A stretch of DNA of 64,000 bases, from contig DATKGV010000012.1 of NCBI GenBank assembly GCA_035510575.1, forward strand, positions 7,596 to 71,595. Reading direction: 5' to 3'. The notes beneath the pieces were generated by a model. The model did not search any database. It had not been told where the DNA came from and saw nothing but the letters and a program-made list of their open reading frames with translations. The translations under genes and the position numbers were made by a program. Origin of the DNA: Minisyncoccota bacterium. Lineage in GTDB: Bacteria > Patescibacteriota > Minisyncoccia > Phycocordibacterales > UBA9973. Shown here one piece after another: positions 3,454-52,956 of this stretch (position 1 is its first letter; each line of letters begins with the position of its first letter).

Positions 3454-3490
3454 AATTCGATTATATCATTTTATTATTATAAATTACAAA

Positions 3491-3513
3491 ATTTAGTAGT
3501 TGAACTACTAAAT
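3491..3513. repeat. REP palindrome copy 1: ATTTAGTAGTT-G-AACTACTAAAT.
   Basis: Perfect palindrome with 11-bp arms, 22 bp upstream of the RAYT start. Confidence 0.8.
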
Positions 3514-3534
3514 TTATGATATAATCAAATAATC

Positions 3535-4164
3535 ATGAGAAATCATATTTTTGAAATTGGGAAATATTATCATATTTATAATAGAGGAGTAGATAAAAGA
3601 GATATTATTTTAGACGAAGAAGATATTAAAAGGTTTTTGCAAAGTTTAATTGAATTTAATACTATTGATCCAATTCAAAGTATTTTTCAACAACACTTAA
3701 AGAAAAAGTTAAAATTTAGTAGTTCAACTACTAAAAAACAATTGGTTTCTATTGTTGCTTATTGTATAAATCTTAATCATTTCCATTTACTCATTACTCC
3801 TCTAGTAGATAAAGGAATTGAAAAATTTATGCAACGTATTGGTGGTTACACTAGGTTTTTTAATGAAAAATATGATAGATCTGGAGCTTTATTTCAAGGA
3901 AGATTCAAATCAAAAATTATAGAAGATAATAATTACCTTCTTAATTTAAGTGCTTATATAAATTTTAATAATAGAAAAGAAGATGGAGATTTTATTTCAG
4001 AATTTAGTAAATCAAGCCTTGAGGAGTATATTCAAGATGACACAAAAGGTCTTTGTTCCAAAAAAATAATTTTATCTAATTTTAAAAATAAAAAAGATTA
4101 TTTAGAATTTGCAAAATCTTCATGGAAAGAAACTTTAAAAAGAAAAGAAGAAGTAGAATTTTAG
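3535..4164 (+). CDS. REP-associated tyrosine transposase (RAYT, IS200/IS605 TnpA-like Y1 HUH transposase).
   Basis: HUH motif HFHLLI. Conserved GYTRFFNEKYDRSGALFQGRFKS block typical of Y1 transposases. YHIYNRG near the N-terminus. Flanked by REP palindromes. Confidence 0.7.
   Translation: MRNHIFEIGKYYHIYNRGVDKRDIILDEEDIKRFLQSLIEFNTIDPIQSIFQQHLKKKLKFSSSTTKKQLVSIVAYCINLNHFHLLITPLVDKGIEKFMQRIGGYTRFFNEKYDRSGALFQGRFKSKIIEDNNYLLNLSAYINFNNRKEDGDFISEFSKSSLEEYIQDDTKGLCSKKIILSNFKNKKDYLEFAKSSWKETLKRKEEVEF
3715..3735. repeat. REP palindrome copy 2: TTTAGTAGTT-C-AACTACTAAA. It lies inside the RAYT ORF and is in frame.
   Basis: Perfect palindrome. It encodes KFSSSTTKK within the RAYT. Confidence 0.8.
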
Positions 4165-4178
4165 TAGTTGGACTACTA
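4162..4178. repeat. REP palindrome copy 3: TAGTAGT-TGG-ACTACTA.
   Basis: The palindrome overlaps the RAYT stop codon TAG. Confidence 0.75.
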
Positions 4179-4951: not shown

Positions 4952-4978
4952 AATTTTAGTAGTTGGACTACTAAAATT
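4952..4978. repeat. REP palindrome copy 4: AATTTTAGTAGT-TGG-ACTACTAAAATT.
   Basis: Near-perfect palindrome just upstream of the ComB-like gene start. Confidence 0.75.
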
Positions 4979-6465: not shown

Positions 6466-6547
6466 GCCCGAGTGGCGGAATTGGTATACGCGCACGACTT
6501 AAAATCGTGTCTCGCAAGGGATGTGGGTTCGATTCCCACCTCGGGCA
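6466..6547 (+). tRNA. tRNA-Leu, anticodon UAA, type II with a long variable arm.
   Basis: Acceptor stem GCCCGAG/CTCGGGC. Anticodon stem CACGA/TCGTG with loop CTTAAAA. T-arm GTGGG-TTCGATT-CCCAC. No encoded CCA. Confidence 0.9.
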
Positions 6548-6592
6548 CAAAGAAAAAAAGCAGGCAAAATACCTACTTTTAATTTTGAGAAT

Positions 6593-21099: not shown

Positions 21100-21750
21100 A
21101 TGAATCCAATAGAAAAACTTGCAGAGCAATTTAAAGAATTTCCGGGCATTGGCGAACGGCAGGCCAAGCGCTTCGTTTATTTCTTGCTTCATAAGAATCC
21201 GGATTATGTAAATGAACTTGGCGAGGCAGTTTTGTCGATTAAGAATTTAATACACCAATGCCCGTCATGCTTCTTATTTTTCCAAGGAGATAAGGGCAAG
21301 TTATGCGAGGTTTGTGCAAATAGTAATACTGACAGAACTTCCCTTCTGATTGTTGAAAAAGATGCCGATTATGAAAGTATAAAGAAAAGCAAGAATTATA
21401 ATGGCATGTATTTTATACTTGGTGGACTGGTGCCCATTGTCACGAAAGAAACGCCTAATTTTGTGCGCATTAAAGAGCTTTTAAAAACTGTTGAAGAAAG
21501 ATCAAAAAAACCTGCCCGCCCTCACGAAAGTTCGGGAGCAGGCGGGGGCGAACTTAAAGAAATTATTGTAGCCTTATCATTAAACCCGCAAGGCGAGCAT
21601 ACGGACATGTATCTTAGGGAGATATTGAATCCGCTTAAAGAAACATATAAATTTAATATCGTATCTTTGGGGCGAGGTCTTTCTACTGGCACTGAACTGG
21701 AATATTCAGACAGCGAGACGATAAAAAATGCTCTTTTAAATAGAGCATAA
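21100..21750 (+). CDS. recR: Recombination protein RecR, carrying an in-frame GC-rich repeat insertion.
   Basis: HhH EFPGIGERQAKRF. C4 zinc finger CPSCFLF..CEVC. Toprim EIIVALSLNPQGEHT. An atypical KKPARPHESSGAGGG insert is encoded by repeat A. Confidence 0.85.
   Translation: MNPIEKLAEQFKEFPGIGERQAKRFVYFLLHKNPDYVNELGEAVLSIKNLIHQCPSCFLFFQGDKGKLCEVCANSNTDRTSLLIVEKDADYESIKKSKNYNGMYFILGGLVPIVTKETPNFVRIKELLKTVEERSKKPARPHESSGAGGGELKEIIVALSLNPQGEHTDMYLREILNPLKETYKFNIVSLGRGLSTGTELEYSDSETIKNALLNRA
21504..21550. repeat. GC-rich repeat family A, copy 1 (AAAAAAACCTGCCCGCCCTCACGAAAGTTCGGGAGCAGGCGGGGG), in frame in recR.
   Basis: Near-identical reverse-complement copy at 26125-26170. Partial copy at 48156-48170. 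About 70% GC in an AT-rich context. Confidence 0.8.
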
Positions 21751-26067: not shown

Positions 26068-27336
26068 TTAAGACAATCTCTCTTTGAAATCCTTATAGCC
26101 GAATTTCTTTATAATTTTAATCTTACCCCCGCCTGCTCCCGAACTATCGTGAGGGCGGGCAGGTTTTTTTATTATAGCAATTGAAGGAAGATTTATGCCA
26201 TTAAAAGTATTGTTCTTAACCATCGTATAAATGGCCATGTTTAAGAAAATTATTTTTTGCCCGATAGTTGAAGGTTGTGGAAAAGAGTAATCTCCTATAA
26301 CATCTCCAGTCAAACAGCTCGGGCCGACTAAGCGATAAATGTTCACATTTCCTTCTGTAGCTGATTTAGCGCCAAGAATAGTTGGTAAATAAGGCATTTC
26401 CAAGACGTCAGGCATATGAGTAGTGGCCGAGACGTCTATTACAGCGATATTCATATTATTTTTTGTTATATCAACTACGCTGCCTATTAAAATGCCAGCA
26501 TTAAGTGCTATGGCTTCACCCGGCTCTAAATAAACTTGCAAGTGCGGATATTGGGCTTTAAAATCCATGATTATCTTATTAAGAAGCGCAATATCATAGT
26601 CCTTGCGCGTAATATGATGCCCGCCGCCGAAATTAACCCATTTCATCCGAGGCAAAAATTCGCCGAATTTTTCTTCAAATACTTTAAGCGTACGCTCTAG
26701 TGCATCAGCATTAAGCTCGCAAAGATTATGAAAATGAAGGCCGTCTATGCCATCCAAATTATTTGATTCAAAATTCGTTTTGGTCACGCCGAAATGGGAA
26801 TTAGGCCTGCTTGGGTCATACATAGGATTTTCCGTTTCGCTATGTTCCACATTTACCCTGATTCCGCAAGAAATTTTCTTTTTAGAATTTTTAATAACAT
26901 TCTTAAATTTATTCCATTGCGAAAATGAATTAAAAACCATATGATCAGCGTATCTGACATATTCTTTCATATTTTCTTTAGTATATGACGGAGAAAAGAC
27001 GTGGACTTCCCCGCCGAATTTTTTATATCCTAGACGCGCTTCATTTACTGAACTTGCTTCGCTTCCTGTAAGATATTTTTTGATCAATGGGAAAACGGAA
27101 AACATAGAAAAACTTTTCAGCGCCATTATGATTTTACAGCCGGTTTTTTCTTGAACGGAAGAAAGTATTTTAAGATTATGTTCCAATCTTTCCTCGCTCA
27201 CCACATAACAGGGCGTTTCAACATCAGAAAAATCCTGCGCATTCCAGCCCTCTTCATCTACCCAAGGTTCAATAAACATATTTTCTTTTTTATCAGGCAT
27301 TTTAATTTTAATTTTTGATGCTACAAACTCTGCCAT
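26068..27336 (-). CDS. nspC: Carboxynorspermidine/carboxyspermidine decarboxylase (PLP fold III), with a repeat-encoded C-terminal extension.
   Basis: NspC-like alignment throughout: KSFSMF...NFGGGHHI...EPGEAIA...GPSCLTGDV. C-terminal tail IKKPARPHDSSGAGGGKIKIIKK is encoded by repeat A copy 2. Confidence 0.8.
   Translation of the reverse strand: MAEFVASKIKIKMPDKKENMFIEPWVDEEGWNAQDFSDVETPCYVVSEERLEHNLKILSSVQEKTGCKIIMALKSFSMFSVFPLIKKYLTGSEASSVNEARLGYKKFGGEVHVFSPSYTKENMKEYVRYADHMVFNSFSQWNKFKNVIKNSKKKISCGIRVNVEHSETENPMYDPSRPNSHFGVTKTNFESNNLDGIDGLHFHNLCELNADALERTLKVFEEKFGEFLPRMKWVNFGGGHHITRKDYDIALLNKIIMDFKAQYPHLQVYLEPGEAIALNAGILIGSVVDITKNNMNIAVIDVSATTHMPDVLEMPYLPTILGAKSATEGNVNIYRLVGPSCLTGDVIGDYSFPQPSTIGQKIIFLNMAIYTMVKNNTFNGINLPSIAIIKKPARPHDSSGAGGGKIKIIKKFGYKDFKERLS
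26125..26170. repeat. GC-rich repeat family A, copy 2 (reverse complement of copy 1), at the 3' end of nspC.
   Basis: CCCCCGCCTGCTCCCGAACTATCGTGAGGGCGGGCAGGTTTTTTT. One mismatch relative to copy 1. Confidence 0.8.
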
Positions 27337-30357: not shown

Positions 30358-31680
30358 GTGGTTATGGCACGAAAAATTATAATAAATAAATTCGGCGGAG
30401 GAATACTGACTAAAAAATTCATTCCGTTGATTAAGGAGCGTTTGAATGAGCAAATAAAAGCAGGTTATATGCCTGTCATTGTCGTTTCAGCAATGCATGG
30501 AATTACTGATGAAATAATCAAGTTTCTAAATAATAAAAAAATATCAGATCAATCAATTAGAGTGTTTATAAAAAATCTTAGAGATATGCATGATCAAATA
30601 ATGGCAAATATGGGTGTTAAAGTTAATTTGCAAGAAATATTTTCTAAGTTAAGGACTGTCCTTGAGGAGGCCCTCTTAAGGACAGTCCTTGCACCCGCAG
30701 ACGAAGATGAAATAGTTTCTTATGGAGAGAAATTATCGGCAGCTATTTTAACTTCTTATTTAAGCGACCTTAAATTGCCGGTAAAGAAATATTTAGCAGA
30801 AGAAATACCTATAATAACTGATGATAATTTCAAGAATGCAAATATTTTATATAAGGAATCGGAAAAAAATGTTCAAAATAAATTTCTCAATTTAAAAGAA
30901 ATACCAATTATTCCAGGTTTTACCGGCATAACTAGAGACGGGCAAACTACGACGCTTGGCCGAGGAGGCACTGATACGACTGCTTGCTTCATCGGATCTG
31001 CTCTTCAAGCTCGCAATATAATTTTATGGAAAGACGTGGCAGGCGTGTTTTCAGCCGATCCTAAAATAGTTCCCAAGGCGCGCACAATACCGTATATAAG
31101 CTACAGAGAAGCCGAGGAATCCGGCAAAGTCATTCATGAAAAAGCCATTCAATATGTTAAAATGTTTAAAACCCCGATTGAAATAACTTATATCGCAAAT
31201 CCCAAATTAAAGACAAAAATTGGCAAAATTATGGATCAGCAAAAAGGCGCCAAGATAGTCAGCTTCAAAAAAGATCTGGCTCTGATTATTATTACTGATG
31301 AAACTGCAAAAATAACGGAGCTTCTATATGAGACGAGCCGAATTTTTTCCAAATACAAAGTTGATATGATACTTATCAGCAATACCCGTTACAGCTTGCA
31401 AATCGTGGCTGATAATAACAACGGATTGCTCGATAAAGTTATTGGCGAATTAAAAGGCAACTTTTCTAAAATTGAAATTTCCAAGGTTAACATGTTTTTC
31501 TTAGTCGGCAATTTTAACGTCAAAGATGTGAATGATTTCAATGATATTTTAATCAAGCATAAAACCGGCCTCCAAATCAGCGCCTTCCTTTATGAGAATT
31601 GCACTCGGCTTGAAGCAGTGGTTAAAAGTGATAAGGTTGAAGATATTATTAGAGTTCTATATAAGAAATTTATTAAATAA
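30358..31680 (+). CDS. lysC: Aspartate kinase.
   Basis: Amino-acid kinase N-terminus IINKFGGGIL. C-terminal ACT-like region. Contains an in-frame nested palindrome encoding LRTVLEEALLRTVLA. Confidence 0.85.
   Translation: MVMARKIIINKFGGGILTKKFIPLIKERLNEQIKAGYMPVIVVSAMHGITDEIIKFLNNKKISDQSIRVFIKNLRDMHDQIMANMGVKVNLQEIFSKLRTVLEEALLRTVLAPADEDEIVSYGEKLSAAILTSYLSDLKLPVKKYLAEEIPIITDDNFKNANILYKESEKNVQNKFLNLKEIPIIPGFTGITRDGQTTTLGRGGTDTTACFIGSALQARNIILWKDVAGVFSADPKIVPKARTIPYISYREAEESGKVIHEKAIQYVKMFKTPIEITYIANPKLKTKIGKIMDQQKGAKIVSFKKDLALIIITDETAKITELLYETSRIFSKYKVDMILISNTRYSLQIVADNNNGLLDKVIGELKGNFSKIEISKVNMFFLVGNFNVKDVNDFNDILIKHKTGLQISAFLYENCTRLEAVVKSDKVEDIIRVLYKKFIK
30650..30692. repeat. Nested palindromic insert in lysC (TAAGGACTGTCCTT-GAGGAGGCCCTCTT-AAGGACAGTCCTT).
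   Basis: Two self-complementary 13-mers, AAGGAC(T/A)GTCCTT, flanking a GC-rich core. Encodes the duplicated peptide LRTVL. Confidence 0.65.
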
Positions 31681-37563: not shown

Positions 37564-38109
37564 ATGTCAAAATTCACTACAGGGTCAAGTAAAAGCGACT
37601 ATTCCAAGAAAATATTGAAGATTTTGGCTGAAAAACCGGCAGTTTCTGTTATGGAACTTGTAGATAGGGCTTTAGGCGCTCAGATAGCGCCTAAAGCCCT
37701 ATCTACGTATGCCCTTACACGCTCGCTAAAAGGCCTTACAGAGGCAGGATTTGTTGAGAGCGTATCATCGGGTCAAAACGAATACGCGCGTCTTACAAAC
37801 GAAGGCAAGCGCAAGGCCTATAGCATAAAACTGGAATCCGGACTTGTTTCAACGAAATGGGACGGCTATTGGCGAATGATTATGCTTGATCTGCCAGAAG
37901 AACGCAAAAGCGAACGCGAGGCGCTTCGCTATCTGCTCAAAAAGGCCGGATTTGTCTGTGTTAAAAATTCTGTCTGGGTGTCTATGTACCCATATGAGAA
38001 TCTTTTCATAAATATTAAAAAAGATCTCGGTCTTACAACCGAGATGATGATACTCGTCACAGATAAAATTGACGAAGAAACAGAGAAAGAATTAATTAAG
38101 ATGTTTTAA
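37564..38109 (+). CDS. Small winged-helix regulator with a PaaX_C-like C-terminal domain.
   Basis: N-terminal wHTH ILKILAEKPAVSVMELV. C-terminal WDGYWRMIMLDLPEERKSEREALRYLLKKAGF...NSVWVS resembles the PaaX C-terminal domain. Located between grpE and dnaK. Confidence 0.45.
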   Translation: MSKFTTGSSKSDYSKKILKILAEKPAVSVMELVDRALGAQIAPKALSTYALTRSLKGLTEAGFVESVSSGQNEYARLTNEGKRKAYSIKLESGLVSTKWDGYWRMIMLDLPEERKSEREALRYLLKKAGFVCVKNSVWVSMYPYENLFINIKKDLGLTTEMMILVTDKIDEETEKELIKMF

Positions 38110-41529: not shown

Positions 41530-41571
41530 CCCCATGTCGGACTTGTGGTTAGCCATAAGTCCGACATGGGG
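41530..41571 (-). promoter_or_regulatory. Intercistronic hairpin between rpsK and rpsD, with a perfect 15-bp stem.
   Basis: CCCCATGTCGGACTT / AAGTCCGACATGGGG with a 12-nt loop. It starts 6 nt after the rpsK stop and ends about 10 nt before the rpsD start. Confidence 0.6.
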
Positions 41572-48194: not shown

Positions 48195-49982
48195 TCAATA
48201 AACCTCTTGCTGGTAACATTTCTCGCAGTATATAATCTCTGGTCGGTCTGGTGAATATGATGTTTCAAACTCTATGTCACAGTTATTATTTCCGTGAAAA
48301 TGACTTGTCTTGTCACACATACACTTCCTATGCCAGAGTTTCATAGGATTACGCATTTTTAATCTTTCTCTATGACGACAAAAGAAACATAGATGTGGCA
48401 ATGGCACTTTTAATTTTTTATACAAATTTAATTCATCTTCTATTACTTTAAAGGCCTTCCGGCAATAAATATTATTTTCATTTACATTTTCGCATTCTAT
48501 AATTTCTCTAATTATTTCATCAGAAACGTCATTTAGTTTATCCGGCAAATCTTTTGCTTTTATAGTTGCTTTATATTCATTTACTTGCCTCTCTCGCCAT
48601 TTATAACCTTCTTTTAATATCTTCTCTTTTGTTTTAGGAAAATAATCTTGAGCAACTGTTTCATTGTAGGCAAATGGTGAAAGTTCTACTGGAAAAAATT
48701 CTCCATATTTATAAATAATCTTATTTTTATCAACATAAGGAATATTCATCATTTGCTGTTTTATTTTTGAAACGAGTTTTTCATATTCATCTTTTGAATA
48801 TTGTTTATTTAAAATACAATATTTTTTATTTCTTAAGCCAAGACAGCCAAATAGGTTAGAACAGCCATAACAATTAAAGCAATATTCTATTTCATTTGAA
48901 CTATATACAACACTAGTAAAAAGATTGCGGTAATTTCCTATTCCAGTGTCAAAAATTTCATAAGTCAATTCTGCTAATCCTATTCCAGGACCAGAATCAT
49001 AACCATCTTTTACATCTTTTTCTAGCCAATGAGAATATTTACAATCTTCTATATTGCCCTTTGCATCAAAACAAAATTTGCAATTTTTTGTTCCCTCAAG
49101 ATTATCGCCGATAGAATTAACTGTTTTTATATGGATAGCAAAGCGATGTAATGACTTTAAATACAATTCTTTGAAATTTTTTTTGAGCTCTAAAATTATT
49201 TTATAATCTGTTAAATCCAATTCAGCCAGACGATGATTATACTCTTCTTTAGACAGTTGCTTATTCCACATACAATAGGACTTGCTTCGAAGATTACTGC
49301 AACCAAAACAATTTACACAGCCATGACAATCATATAAAAAATAAGAGTCGACACAATTTTTGCAGTTTAAAGAATATAAAAGATGGTAACAATCTGAACA
49401 AATAACATCATCATAACAAAGTTCTGCATCATTAACTACATAAAGATCGGAAGAATCTTTAATTCTTGAAATCCGATTCGAATAAAAAGTTTGTTCAATT
49501 TGCCAAGAACCAGATGACATGTAACTGTTTCTACTTTCCTCAGCAATATTACAATAATCACTATTCGTAGCATTGCTATTTGAAAGAATTTGGAGGGGAA
49601 ATTGATTCATTAGATTTTTCCATTGCTTAAAAAATGGTTCAGAAAAATCATAATCACGCCCATAAAACATTGGGTCCCATTTATCTCCCCACCAATATTT
49701 TATATCATAAACTATGAGATTTTCATCTGGAGGATAAAGAGAAATTAAAGTTTCATTATGATCGGGAGCATTGCATTTCCTCTTAAAAAGAGACATCTCA
49801 TTTCGCCAGCATAATCTTCTTATCGTTCTGCATTCCGGACAAAAAGTTGGTGGAGGAACTTTAATTTTCTCATAAAAAGAAAAGTCGTCCGGCTCAATAA
49901 TAAAGTTTTGCTTACAGTTTTGGCATATTCTAGTTTCTGAATTCATATTCAGAATTATGCCACAATACCTCCGCCTAGGCAA
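48195..49982 (-). CDS. Cys-rich multi-zinc-ribbon protein (paralog B).
   Basis: 595 aa. Same architecture and identical C-terminal motif as 27363..29030. Overlaps the mnmA 3' end by 28 nt. Confidence 0.7.
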   Translation of the reverse strand: MPRRRYCGIILNMNSETRICQNCKQNFIIEPDDFSFYEKIKVPPPTFCPECRTIRRLCWRNEMSLFKRKCNAPDHNETLISLYPPDENLIVYDIKYWWGDKWDPMFYGRDYDFSEPFFKQWKNLMNQFPLQILSNSNATNSDYCNIAEESRNSYMSSGSWQIEQTFYSNRISRIKDSSDLYVVNDAELCYDDVICSDCYHLLYSLNCKNCVDSYFLYDCHGCVNCFGCSNLRSKSYCMWNKQLSKEEYNHRLAELDLTDYKIILELKKNFKELYLKSLHRFAIHIKTVNSIGDNLEGTKNCKFCFDAKGNIEDCKYSHWLEKDVKDGYDSGPGIGLAELTYEIFDTGIGNYRNLFTSVVYSSNEIEYCFNCYGCSNLFGCLGLRNKKYCILNKQYSKDEYEKLVSKIKQQMMNIPYVDKNKIIYKYGEFFPVELSPFAYNETVAQDYFPKTKEKILKEGYKWRERQVNEYKATIKAKDLPDKLNDVSDEIIREIIECENVNENNIYCRKAFKVIEDELNLYKKLKVPLPHLCFFCRHRERLKMRNPMKLWHRKCMCDKTSHFHGNNNCDIEFETSYSPDRPEIIYCEKCYQQEVY

Positions 49983-51139
49983 ATATCTTTGTCATATACT
50001 ACAATTGATTGACCAGAATCAACTAAAACATCATTATCAAAGGTTACTCTAGCTTCTTTATCCGAAATAATTTTTATATGACAGTTTAGTAATTCTCCAT
50101 GATAGCGAATTTGCGCAGTATATATTTTATTTTTGTCCGGAAGCTCATTTATCCAATTTGTATTATTAATAATTAATGAGCTAAAAAATTCTTTTTTTGA
50201 ATGGTCTGGTGAGTTAGTCCGAGGACCTGAAAAAAATGAATTATTTGGCGAATTTAAAACTGTAATTGTATTTTCTTTTAAATTTTTTGAAACAACATAA
50301 AGAGGCCTATTTTCGGAAGATTTTTCAGTAATCGTAAATCCATGCCTTTCGCCTAAAGTGAAAAATATTGCTCCATCATGAGTGCCTATAACTTCCTCAT
50401 TTTCATTCAGAACATTTCCCTTTTTTGATTCTATATAATGCTTTAGAAAATCTTTCATATCAAGTGGCCCTAAAAAGCAAACACCTTGACTATCTTTTTT
50501 AACTGCCGTAGGAAGCTTATATTTCTTTGCAAGTTTACGAACTTCTGTTTTCTTTAAATGTCCAATTGGGAAAAGTATATGTTCTAAATCTTTCTGAGTA
50601 AGAGTCCACAAAAAATAACTTTGATCTTTTGATGAATCAGGACTTTGTTTTAAAAAGTATTTTTCCTCCCCTGCTAAGGGGAGGTGGTCTTTAGACCGGA
50701 GGGGTGCACCCCCTCGTCTTTCAGACACTCCCCCTTCGCAGGGGGAGAAAAAAACTTTAGCATAATGTCCAGTTGCAATAAAATCTGCTCCATGACTTTT
50801 TGCAAAATTCCAAAATACACCAAACTTCACTTCGCGATTGCACATGACATCTGGATTGGGAGTATGGCCCTTTTTATATTCTTCTATCATATAGAGAGCC
50901 ACATTCTTCTTATATTCTTCCTCCGCATTACACTCCAAAAACGGAATGTTTAAATGGGCGCAAACTTTCATGGCGTCGCGCCGTTCATTTCGCCAAGAGC
51001 ATTCTATGAAGTCCGGCGTCCATGTGCGTATAAAAACTCCGACGACATTATAGCCTTGGTCTTTTAAAAGCGCGGCGCTGACTGAAGAATCTACGCCTCC
51101 GGAAACGCCGACAAACACTGTTTTATTATTTTTATTCAT
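49955..51139 (-). CDS. mnmA: tRNA-specific 2-thiouridylase MnmA carrying two in-frame repeat-derived inserts.
   Basis: PP-loop VGVSGGVDSSV. GHYA...DQSYFL. The insert SPCEGGVSERRGGAPLRSKDHLPLAGEE is encoded by a GC hairpin triplet. The insert FFSGPRTNSPDHSKKEFF is encoded by repeat B. Confidence 0.85.
   Translation of the reverse strand: MNKNNKTVFVGVSGGVDSSVSAALLKDQGYNVVGVFIRTWTPDFIECSWRNERRDAMKVCAHLNIPFLECNAEEEYKKNVALYMIEEYKKGHTPNPDVMCNREVKFGVFWNFAKSHGADFIATGHYAKVFFSPCEGGVSERRGGAPLRSKDHLPLAGEEKYFLKQSPDSSKDQSYFLWTLTQKDLEHILFPIGHLKKTEVRKLAKKYKLPTAVKKDSQGVCFLGPLDMKDFLKHYIESKKGNVLNENEEVIGTHDGAIFFTLGERHGFTITEKSSENRPLYVVSKNLKENTITVLNSPNNSFFSGPRTNSPDHSKKEFFSSLIINNTNWINELPDKNKIYTAQIRYHGELLNCHIKIISDKEARVTFDNDVLVDSGQSIVVYDKDICLGGGIVA
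50198..50231. repeat. Repeat family B, copy 2, in frame in mnmA.
   Basis: TGAATGGTCTGGTGAGTTAGTCCGAGGACCTGAA, compared with copy 1 at 37336-37369. Confidence 0.75.
50664..50747. repeat. Array of three GC-rich hairpins in frame in mnmA.
   Basis: CCTCCCC-TGCTAA-GGGGAGG. GAGGGG-TGCA-CCCCCTC. CTCCCCC-TTCGCA-GGGGGAG. Confidence 0.75.
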
Positions 51140-52047: not shown

Positions 52048-52956
52048 TTATTTGAGATATTTGGCAATATTAATCTTATGCTCTTGGAATGTTTTTGCAA
52101 AATGTATCATGCCATTCTTATCATACAGATAATACAGATATGGAGAGTCAACAGGATAAAGAGATGCGCTTATGGACATTAGCCCGGGATTTGCAATAGG
52201 TTCCGATGGAAGTCCCAATATCTTATAAGTGATAGGCGCGGCATCAACTTGAAGGGGCATGCCAAGCGAAAGGCGCTTCCAGAGAATTCCGGAAATGATT
52301 TTCATATCGCTTTCGCTGGACGCTTCATGCTCAAGTATGGAAGCCATTGTTATAATATCATTCAAGCTGTGCTTGGAATTCAAAACATCTTGGCGCAATT
52401 TTGCCGTTTGCTTGTCGAAATTATCGGATAAAACCGAGATTATTTCATCCGTGGTGGAAAGAGAAAAGAAAAAATAAGTATCCGGGAATAAATATCCCTG
52501 TTTTGCGGCGGCATTTTTATCAAATTCTTCTTTATTAAAACCAGCAATATTTTTTGACAGCAAATCGGATATCTCGCCGTTGGTCAAACCTTCCCTGATT
52601 GTAATCTTAATCGGATTAACATTATGCATTCCGTGAGCAAGATCCCATGCTACTTTAAAAAGCGGCGAATTTTTATTGAAATAATAATCGCCCCACGGTA
52701 TCTGCCTATCGCTTTTGAATAATTCAGCCAGCAATTGGAGCAAGGTTTTTGAACGAATAATATTCTTGTCTTTTAAATCATTGGATATCGCATGAAGCGA
52801 TTCTTTGGGAGAAATATGAATTGTAGTCGGATTTGAGCCGATAGGCGCTGATATTAAAGAATAATAGCCGATAATAAAGACAATCATGGCAATTAAAACA
52901 TACACACGGCTTCGGCGTGTGTATGTTTTAATTGGTTCTTTATCGGATATATCCAT
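52048..52956 (-). CDS. mltG: Endolytic murein transglycosylase MltG (YceG-like).
   Basis: N-terminal TM helix. YceG motifs GYLFPDTYFF and ASILEHEAS. Confidence 0.8.
   Translation of the reverse strand: MDISDKEPIKTYTRRSRVYVLIAMIVFIIGYYSLISAPIGSNPTTIHISPKESLHAISNDLKDKNIIRSKTLLQLLAELFKSDRQIPWGDYYFNKNSPLFKVAWDLAHGMHNVNPIKITIREGLTNGEISDLLSKNIAGFNKEEFDKNAAAKQGYLFPDTYFFFSLSTTDEIISVLSDNFDKQTAKLRQDVLNSKHSLNDIITMASILEHEASSESDMKIISGILWKRLSLGMPLQVDAAPITYKILGLPSEPIANPGLMSISASLYPVDSPYLYYLYDKNGMIHFAKTFQEHKINIAKYLK

Follow-up and report, generated by a model that had tools for sequence, protein, structure and literature searches.

The window analysed here, a stretch of 64,000 nucleotides of contig DATKGV010000012.1 (assembly GCA_035510575.1) from a Minisyncoccota bacterium, carries a cluster of GC-rich hairpins inside mnmA, the gene for tRNA 2-thiouridine(34) synthase. 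These hairpins very probably represent one copy of a small, non-autonomous, hairpin-forming repeat that was inserted in frame in mnmA and is dispersed in the Patescibacteria, or candidate phyla radiation (CPR). Observation supports the membership of the repeat unit in a family spread across many genes and genomes, and the story therefore concerns the repeat rather than mnmA. Its behaviour matches that of the palindromic elements of Rickettsia, and it constitutes a new family of in-frame GC-hairpin repeats of Patescibacteria. Loci and proteins used for comparison are cited below by their labels (L001, P0121 and so on).

Palindromic hairpins within mnmA

The host gene occupies 49955..51139 on the minus strand and encodes 394 amino acids (aa), an open reading frame (ORF) identified by Pfam matches to PF03054 (3.3e-71, 239.6 bits), PF20259 and PF20258. 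The PP-loop HUP, PRC-barrel and C-terminal beta-barrel domains of an MnmA protein are all present, as is the SGGxDS motif in the form VSGGVDSS. The protein is 100% identical to a tRNA 2-thiouridine(34) synthase MnmA held at NCBI from a 'Candidatus Paceibacterota' metagenome-assembled genome (MAG). Given that the same 394-aa protein is recorded from three contigs (NCBI, JGI and Logan), an assembly artefact is unlikely.

An earlier note on this DNA had reported an array of three GC hairpins. All three are present in the plus-strand reading: CCTCCCC-TGCTAA-GGGGAGG at 50665-50684 (hairpin 1, which extends to 8 bp with a 4-nt loop), GAGGGG-TGCAC-CCCCTC at 50699-50715 (the central hairpin) and CTCCCCC-TTCGCA-GGGGGAG at 50728-50747 (hairpin 3, likewise extending to 8 bp). 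The description can be refined: two small hairpins that it lacked, GGTC-TTTA-GACC at 50686-50697 and GTCT-TTC-AGAC at 50716-50726, lie between the GC hairpins, and the five belong to one dimeric repeat unit rather than to an array. That the hairpins at 50665-50747 exceed chance expectation is confirmed by several comparisons. The pattern CCTCCCC-N3-8-GGGGAGG occurs once in the window and in none of 100 dinucleotide shuffles, and perfect GC-rich hairpins number 16 in the window against 0-3 in composition-matched shuffles. Likewise, the 121-nt hairpin region folds as RNA at -60.8 kcal/mol (z = -6.2) and as DNA at -31.3 kcal/mol (z = -5.5), none of 200 shuffles being as stable in either case, and its GC content is 0.60 versus 0.37 window-wide. 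The whole segment is in frame within mnmA, coding ...GHYAKVFFSPCEGGVSERRGGAPLRSKDHLPLAGEEKYFLKQSPDSSKDQSYFL... on the minus strand.

An inverted dimer of a 41-nt module

Together the five hairpins make up one element of about 99 nt, an inverted (head-to-head) dimer of a 41-nt double-hairpin module. The layout of the module is CTCCCCCTGCNAAGGGGGAGTG, a variable hairpin and CGAGGGGGT; it consists of a GC stem of 8 bp whose loop is GCNA, of a short hairpin of varying sequence and of a 3' G-run. The alpha half (50707..50747, minus strand, 41 nt) reads CTCCCCCTGCGAAGGGGGAG-TG-TCTGAAAGA-CGAGGGGGTG, includes hairpin 3 and the small hairpin at 50716-50726, and matches the covariance model R1 at 65.1 bits (E = 4.5e-14). 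The beta half, a variant module in inverted orientation (50665..50706, plus strand), reads CCTCCCCTGCTAAGGGGAGG-TG-GTCTTTAGAC-CGGAGGGGTG, includes hairpin 1 with its CCTCCCC/GGGGAGG stem and the small hairpin at 50686-50697, and matches R1 at 45 bits (E = 3e-09). The central hairpin is the 3' G-run of one half paired with the C-run of the other. With its T-run and A-run ends included, the complete palindromic insert spans 50654..50758 on the minus strand, encodes KVFFSPCEGGVSERRGGAPLRSKDHLPLAGEEKYF, and forms one nested palindrome with 33-nt arms that are 82% complementary. Run over the whole 64-kb window with filters off, R1 found nothing beyond the two mnmA halves.

The conserved feature of this element is its set of local hairpins. 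In L001, L003 and L053, which carry the same insert family (family A, below), all five contiguous local hairpins are kept; their small stems vary (GTCT/AGAC, GCCC/GGGC and GGCT/AGCC), and the encoded peptides differ accordingly (VSERRGGAPLRSKD, VPKGRGGRPLWSSD and VSVGRGGQTPPAVS). The global minimum-energy fold of the window copy pairs the two halves with each other. In L001 and L053, however, the local five-hairpin fold is itself the global optimum, and in other copies the small stems of the two halves differ, so that a single long hairpin is ruled out as the conserved structure. In other genes, related dimers likewise fold as five local hairpins. A tRNA-like cloverleaf was also considered and rejected: ARAGORN finds only tRNA-Leu (6466-6548) in the window, this tRNA is the sole match at threshold in an Rfam scan of the window, and the best Rfam match on the element itself is to a eukaryotic snoRNA model, at 32 bits versus a cut-off of 47.

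Insertion between two predicted strands of MnmA

The GHY motif and the KDQSYF motif of the window protein are separated by 44 residues, compared with 14-15 in the shortest Paceibacteria orthologues (for example AINNNGLQKSPDES), in agreement with the in-frame insertion that the earlier note had proposed between them. The junction peptides read ...HYAKVFFSPCEGG... and ...LAGEEKYFLK.... The insert falls within the N-terminal PP-loop (HUP) domain match (residues 7-224), and its assignment to the catalytic region was thus sound. Relatives in the PDB align up to query residue 130 and again from 165, with about ten residues of their own between. An AlphaFold model of the protein, made with 40 orthologues, has a mean predicted local distance difference test score (pLDDT) of 72 and template modelling (TM) scores of 0.73-0.79 against 2hma, 2deu and 2der. 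Only four places fall below a pLDDT of 50, namely the N-terminus, residues 218-221, residues 132-158 (the hairpin insert) and residues 300-315. Residues 132-158 are flanked by predicted strands at 128-131 and 161-164, so that the model supports a position of the insert in a loop between two beta strands, a low-confidence loop of the insertion-tolerant kind that had been suggested.

The earlier note had also regarded the hairpins as a second, distinct type of repeat within mnmA, and a different insert is indeed present in the C-terminal part of the gene. This insert (family F; 50193-50237, minus strand) encodes approximately SFFSGPRTNSPDHSKKEFF, residues ~300-316, again in a place of pLDDT <50, and is a weak palindrome (-11.6 kcal/mol). 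Over 45 nt it shares 89% identity with the L080 insert of the GHY-DQSYF site. Family F is present at the second mnmA site also in L006, L023 and L007, at the GHY-DQSYF site in L080, L011, L036 and L042, and in another gene in L160.

A hot spot for repeat insertion

The GHY-DQSYF loop of MnmA is a hot spot for repeat insertion. The 120 closest MnmA orthologues, each 63-75% identical to the window protein, include 21 with a short loop (<=24 residues) and no recognised insert. Most of the others have loops of 30-63 residues derived from at least eight distinct insert families, such that roughly four in five of the 120 carry an insert of one of at least eight families. Family A, to which the window copy belongs (SPCEGGV..GRGG...HLPLAGEEK), accounts for 8 of the 120, family B (NSFREATGGGVPFLGTPKNGVKELREKLF) for 31 and family C for about 24, with families D, E, F, G, H and others making up the remainder. 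The same mix of empty and filled loops is seen in 80 mnmA loci from GTDB, and all 85 of the 85 readable mnmA loci are in frame across the hot spot, with no stop or frameshift. Comparison of orthologues had been set beforehand as the test that could refute a palindromic origin; those that share the segment also share the palindromic DNA signature. The module also occurs at this loop in monomer form (P0082, L100 and L191), and further MnmA positions carry inserts, with two more in L039 and a family H insert at the second site in L016.

A single ancient insertion of family A was considered as well. A neighbour-joining tree of the 120 orthologues, in which the loop was masked, scatters the eight family-A members among family B, family C, family E and empty loops. 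This placement speaks against such an origin, and it is weak evidence because the tree is nearly star-like.

Several loci display traces of more complex histories. In L001 (7126-7305) and L003 (10370-10549) the 3' end of family B, ...CVREKLF or ...CIQEKLF, comes after the family-A dimer; the sequences suggest that family A inserted into, or mostly replaced, an older B element, that is, a nested or serial insertion. Several 'empty' hot spots read NNYELK-I-NNYELKK (L027, L041, L047, L017 and L007), the DNA of which is a near-exact 18-nt direct duplication with a 3-nt spacer, and in L034 and L043 the two 18-nt copies have a small hairpin insert exactly between them. The duplication could be a target duplication, an excision footprint or just the two strands of a beta-hairpin. 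Outside MnmA, a KsgA-like site between NISRK.F and EEKFWE holds an alpha module in L130 (1562-1607) and, in L104 (5248-5338), a family D insert (PLLVEEGAGGGD...PPRPSGTPPQK), and is a second hot spot resembling the MnmA loop.

Dispersal across genes and genomes

A scan of metagenome contigs with the 22-nt core CTCCCCCTGYNAAKGGGGAGTG retrieved at least 119 stretches. Among the matches listed, the contigs that bear the core are mostly of 30-45% GC, 61 of the 108 distinct contexts fall within ORFs of 150 aa or more, all six reading frames of the module are used (FSPCEGGVPEGRGG, SPPAKGECPKGEGV, LPLPRGSAQRARGS, PPRPSGTPPSQGEK, TPSPFGHSPLAGGE and DPLALRALPLSRGR), and the module is opposite in orientation to its host gene in 20 groups and the same in 11. 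At least 70 copies are found inside ORFs of at least 150 aa, and these form at least 31 unrelated host groups. The monomer has no stop in any of its six frames, and copies within such ORFs run through stop-free. All ten hosts examined with Pfam proved to be housekeeping proteins: PheT, Fmt, Dus, KsgA, a ChlI/ComM-like ATPase, UvrD, the CCA-adding enzyme, ArgRS, Tgt and a release factor. Dimers like that of the window occur in PolA (L132 and L193), in an ORF read from its sequence as TsaE (L096 and L173), and in L098 and L181. Families D and F likewise occur in other genes, in L104 (KsgA-like), L197 (FtsK-like), L137, L176 and L160, their hosts being named from the sequence and not from Pfam. 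Applied to 627 kb of metagenome loci, R1 gave 139 matches, and L168 and L162 are loci that each contain several copies. The module is frequently part of mosaics with other GC hairpins, for example CCCCTCC-N-GGAGGGG.

Narrower distributions were considered and set aside. Searches with blastn and R1 gave nothing outside mnmA in 1.4 Mb from relatives, as an mnmA-specific element would require; the metagenome scan overturned this view. Carriage by phages finds no better footing, given that among 2.9 million viral contigs the core is present in one only, where it is intergenic. Searches for hosts at the peptide level returned a single protein each: a word-indexed profile search with the insert peptide found P0121, a PolA-like fragment with SISPCQGGVPEGRGG, and an exhaustive phmmer search with the 35-residue insert found P0122, a spurious repeat protein. 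These searches are uninformative because a 30-residue query is too short for such large libraries.

Conserved pairing and free sequence

The metagenome matches were chosen by the exact 22-nt core, which leaves the inner hairpin and the flanks outside the selection. The inner hairpin takes about 50 different sequences, in which 93% of possible stem positions are paired versus 15% in shuffles. In an alignment of 45 sequences, 98.3% of cells are paired, none of 500 shuffles matches the observed covariation score, and sliding the stem partners lowers pairing to 45-66%. Further, the inner stem is still paired at orthologous sites whose flanks are only 61-69% identical. Orthologous Fmt sites, for example, have inner stems of GCC/GGC, CCC/GGG, GCT/AGC and TCC/GGA, and the RecG-like and YchF-like sets display the same persistence. 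It is thus the nucleic-acid structure that is conserved and not the peptide. Such persistence indicates that the hairpin is under selection, that new copies have repeatedly replaced it, or that the stem is repaired from a template.

A farther-reading proposal can be built on these observations. Rather than decaying junk, the modules might be a class of actively maintained hairpins throughout the Patescibacteria, the pairing of which is preserved at orthologous sites by selection or by a copy-correcting enzyme (possibly of the HUH/Y1 type), with preferential re-insertion into existing hairpins giving rise to the hot spots of MnmA and KsgA and with the whole serving as a steady source of new surface loops in the essential proteins of these genome-reduced organisms. 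This proposal is speculative and, at present, rather unlikely.

Proposed mode of insertion and alternative explanations

On the favoured explanation, a dispersed repeat inserted in frame, integration would have taken place in the DNA of mnmA, at the part that encodes the tip of the beta-hairpin lying between GHY and DQSYF. The gene would stay open because the element is stop-free in frame and adds a multiple of three bases. Read-through of the G+C-rich element would then give the enzyme a disordered loop of about 30 residues, rich in Pro, Gly and Arg, which it tolerates, and the insert may well be functionally neutral. The same repeat family would have colonised permissive loops of many housekeeping genes in Patescibacteria/CPR, the MnmA loop being one such site, where insertion or overwriting by at least eight repeat families would have taken place again and again. 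The structure of the element, its in-frame insertion, its dispersal over genes, frames and orientations and the upkeep of its pairing are shown by the data above; spread by transposition of a single-stranded hairpin intermediate is the preferred guess. The ends of the element are inverted repeats (a T-run and CTCCCCC at one end, GGGGAGG and an A-run at the other), T stands at position -1 in 94% of copies, and TTTT is the usual 5' flank. A single match is the rule among the loci; of those with several, the ones inspected (L141, L160 and L168) comprise a stretch that is duplicated, a pair of neighbouring genes with insertions, and closely packed clusters.

Several points weigh against this explanation. 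Mobility of the repeat is deduced from its distribution only, and translation of the insert is presumed from the sequence. No cognate transposase was found, no module pair brackets a gene in the match lists (2.2 Mb) as an autonomous parent element might, and no consistent direct duplication of the target is seen at the copies, compared at a flank identity of ~70%. Conservation of the outer stem is uninformative because the search pattern itself fixed that stem, and the presence of intact hairpins at orthologous sites suggests something unlike simple junk. The 64-kb window contains no second copy of the element. Across 1.38 Mb around mnmA from 82 related genomes, R1 gave nine matches, at the hot spot of five loci plus one weak match elsewhere. 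Given this rarity in the clade of the window, the window copy could be an old, vertically inherited relic and not an active repeat.

A more specific version of the favoured explanation holds that the element is of the repetitive extragenic palindrome (REP) or REPIN type, mobilised in trans by a REP-associated tyrosine transposase (RAYT)-like protein of the Y1 (HUH) class encoded in the same genome, with the hairpins acting as its recognition sites in single-stranded DNA. The window does encode a Y1_Tnp/RAYT-like protein (3535-4164; tblastn 1.4e-28 to a protein of L003), homologues of which are present in L003, 9 kb from an mnmA with the same dimer, and in L021, L072, L017, L130/L196 and L115. 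The architecture of the element, an inverted dimer of GC-rich hairpins, is REPIN-like, and the T at -1 with its T-rich 5' flank is also in accord with such a mobiliser. Nonetheless, the sole NCBIfam match of the window protein, to REP-associated tyrosine transposase, scores 27 bits against a cut-off of 80; among the matches listed, only 3 of the 119 metagenome loci with the module also contain a Y1 gene; and the copies are intragenic and few, unlike REPs. The RAYT-like genes also carry flanking hairpins of their own that are specific to each genome and are never the GC module. In the window, the hairpin TAGTAGT-N3-ACTACTA occurs at 3494, at 3717 (in frame inside the coding sequence), at 4162 and at 4957, the copies at 3494 and 4162 bracketing the gene (region 3489-4178; the fourth copy spans 4957-4973). 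The genes of L072, L017 and L130/L196 similarly have upstream, internal and downstream copies of hairpins that differ in sequence per genome. Hairpins beside RAYT-like genes outside the window include GTCCTAGG..., GTCCTAAGC... and GTCCATACC.... The GC module does not flank the RAYT-like genes in the window, L072, L017, L130 or L003. The association of a REP with its RAYT is therefore absent, and mobilisation by this protein is doubtful.

It is very unlikely that the segment is a lineage-specific functional extension of MnmA, for instance an Arg/Gly-rich tRNA-binding loop under selection at the protein level, with the DNA palindromy incidental. The segment is certainly rich in Arg, Gly and Pro and resides in an RNA-binding enzyme, and most orthologues have some extension at this loop. 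However, the same DNA module is read in six frames, with unrelated peptides as the outcome, across at least 31 host groups that are themselves unrelated, and copies within MnmA differ in peptide but keep their base pairing. Moreover, at least eight unrelated families and empty loops alternate among orthologues that are ~70% identical, and the segment has a pLDDT <50.

Equally improbable is a cis-acting RNA structure of the mnmA mRNA, one that might mimic a tRNA for autoregulation, affect the stability of the transcript or make translation pause. In its favour, the fold is highly stable and non-random, and its stems covary, which is the usual mark of a functional RNA. Against it, the element turns up in numerous unrelated genes as well as between genes and may face either way relative to the host (the 20 opposite and 11 same groups above), no Rfam family reaches threshold on the element, and other orthologues have unrelated sequence or nothing at the site. 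Such hairpins may nevertheless have a general effect on mRNA.

Template switching during replication is able to create and 'repair' hairpins. Hairpins made and kept perfect in situ by intra-strand switching, without transposition, would explain the apparently compensatory changes at orthologous sites without invoking selection. Such a process cannot, however, explain why over 100 sites in unrelated genes share one 41-nt consensus with identical ends, and as an account of origin it has very little to commend it. As a means of maintaining the stem once a copy is in place, template switching is plausible.

Least likely of all is an intervening sequence that is removed or skipped (a mini-intein, an intron or a translational bypass) and so lies outside mature MnmA. 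GC-rich palindromic inserts in fungal mitochondrial genes are bypassed by the ribosome and offer a precedent. At the mnmA site, however, the frame is kept open in 85 of 85 loci, the monomer has no stop in any of six frames and its copies in ORFs of at least 150 aa are read through, an intein or a self-splicing intron would need more than 99 nt, and there is no Rfam intron match.

Relationship to known repeats

The closest parallels are the Rickettsia palindromic elements (RPEs), short palindromic repeats that lie in frame in many housekeeping genes, at permissive places, with no known transposase (PMC10969869). In both cases a palindromic repeat sits in many unrelated genes of small genomes, the host acquires a peptide segment without loss of its ORF, and a transposase is known for neither. 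Dispersal in many copies within one genome, an RPE trait, may or may not extend to the module, with one copy in the window, nine matches in 1.38 Mb of related genomes and several copies within single metagenome loci such as L168 and L162. Here the reading frame remains open in mnmA and across the at least 70 copies in at least 31 host groups. This likeness is drawn from behaviour and published description. The differences are also considerable. RPEs measure ~100-150 bp and comprise ten Rickettsia families, each with a conserved encoded peptide, whereas the present repeat is a 41-nt GC-rich double hairpin that occurs as monomers, inverted dimers and mosaics in Patescibacteria. Because all six frames are used, no peptide is conserved in the GC module, and a conserved encoded peptide of the RPE kind is unlikely.

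REPs, REPINs and BIMEs resemble the module in being GC-rich imperfect palindromes of 20-40 nt, variants of which are joined in inverted orientation, and in the presence of a RAYT-like Y1 gene in the same genome. The two inverted palindromes of a REPIN have their counterpart in the alpha (minus) and beta (plus) halves, both of which match R1. REPs, however, are extragenic and reach tens to hundreds of copies per genome, whereas the module is mostly intragenic, with one copy in 64 kb. Nor does it have a GTAG or CGTC head; it starts T-CTCCCCC and ends CGAGGGGGT-C, and the RAYT-like gene is flanked by another hairpin.

The GC clusters of yeast mitochondria (such as GC42) have substitutions mainly in loops, conserved stems, units that merge and shuffle, and no known transposase (PMC4478555). 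They are alike in being G+C-rich hairpins in an A+T-rich genome with conserved stems and modular merging. They differ in being mostly intergenic, organellar and associated with an AG target dinucleotide, no counterpart of which could be defined for the module, and there is no sequence relationship. Intragenic MITEs (miniature transposable elements with inverted repeats), including the Coxiella QMITE, ERIC and the MITEs of Anabaena, are non-autonomous inverted repeats that occasionally fuse in frame to host genes (PMC10969869). MITEs have recognisable terminal inverted repeats, target-site duplications and often a parent insertion sequence; beyond the inverted repeats of its ends, no such features were recognised for the GC module at the flank identity of ~70%. 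A full-text literature search returned no report of such elements for CPR/Patescibacteria, in a literature whose coverage is incomplete and in which an earlier description is possible.

Implications

To our knowledge, most descriptions of palindromic DNA colonising essential genes in frame come from Rickettsia, where the mechanism has been unknown for 25 years. The same phenomenon in Patescibacteria/CPR, a very large and densely sampled group, offers a smaller modular unit with six open frames and a covarying inner stem. Given the many MAGs of this group, rates of insertion and loss, the choice of targets and the location of hot spots become countable, as do the maintenance of stems by selection versus templated repair and the frequency with which inserts become real protein segments. 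There are also practical consequences for comparative work. The inserts inflate and fragment the alignments of universal marker proteins used in CPR phylogeny, and they account for part of the 'CPR-specific insertions' in housekeeping proteins.

Other features of the window

Four other long perfect or near-perfect palindromes, with stems of 16-21 bp, lie inside ORFs or across their starts. They are found at 30650-30692 in an aspartate-kinase-like ORF, where the palindrome encodes KLRTVLEEALLRTVL; at 37660-37706 in a 181-aa ORF; at 41530-41571 in the N-terminus of an S4-like ORF; and at 52890-52934 in the N-terminus of a YceG-like ORF, the three named ORFs being identified by sequence reading and by synteny with L001 and L003. 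An 'RTVL' module of these palindromes resembles the inserts at the second mnmA site in L010, L030 and L039. Elsewhere, a GC-rich inverted-repeat pair of ~35 nt (21514-21550 and 26126-26160; GCCCGCCCTCACGAAAGTTCGGGAGCAGGCGGGGGCG and its near reverse complement) surrounds a 4.6-kb segment of five ORFs and could represent the ends of a mobile or invertible segment.

Downstream of mnmA, a Cys-rich (zinc-ribbon-like) ORF of 595 aa (48195-49982) overlaps the 3' end of the gene by 28 nt. This ORF is absent from that place in L001 and L003, where MgtC or CutA1 follows mnmA, and a similar ORF start comes after mnmA in L005. Finally, positions 1-2000 of the window have a GC content of 47%, versus 27-44% in all other 2-kb blocks, with GC-rich stretches and strong predicted folds.

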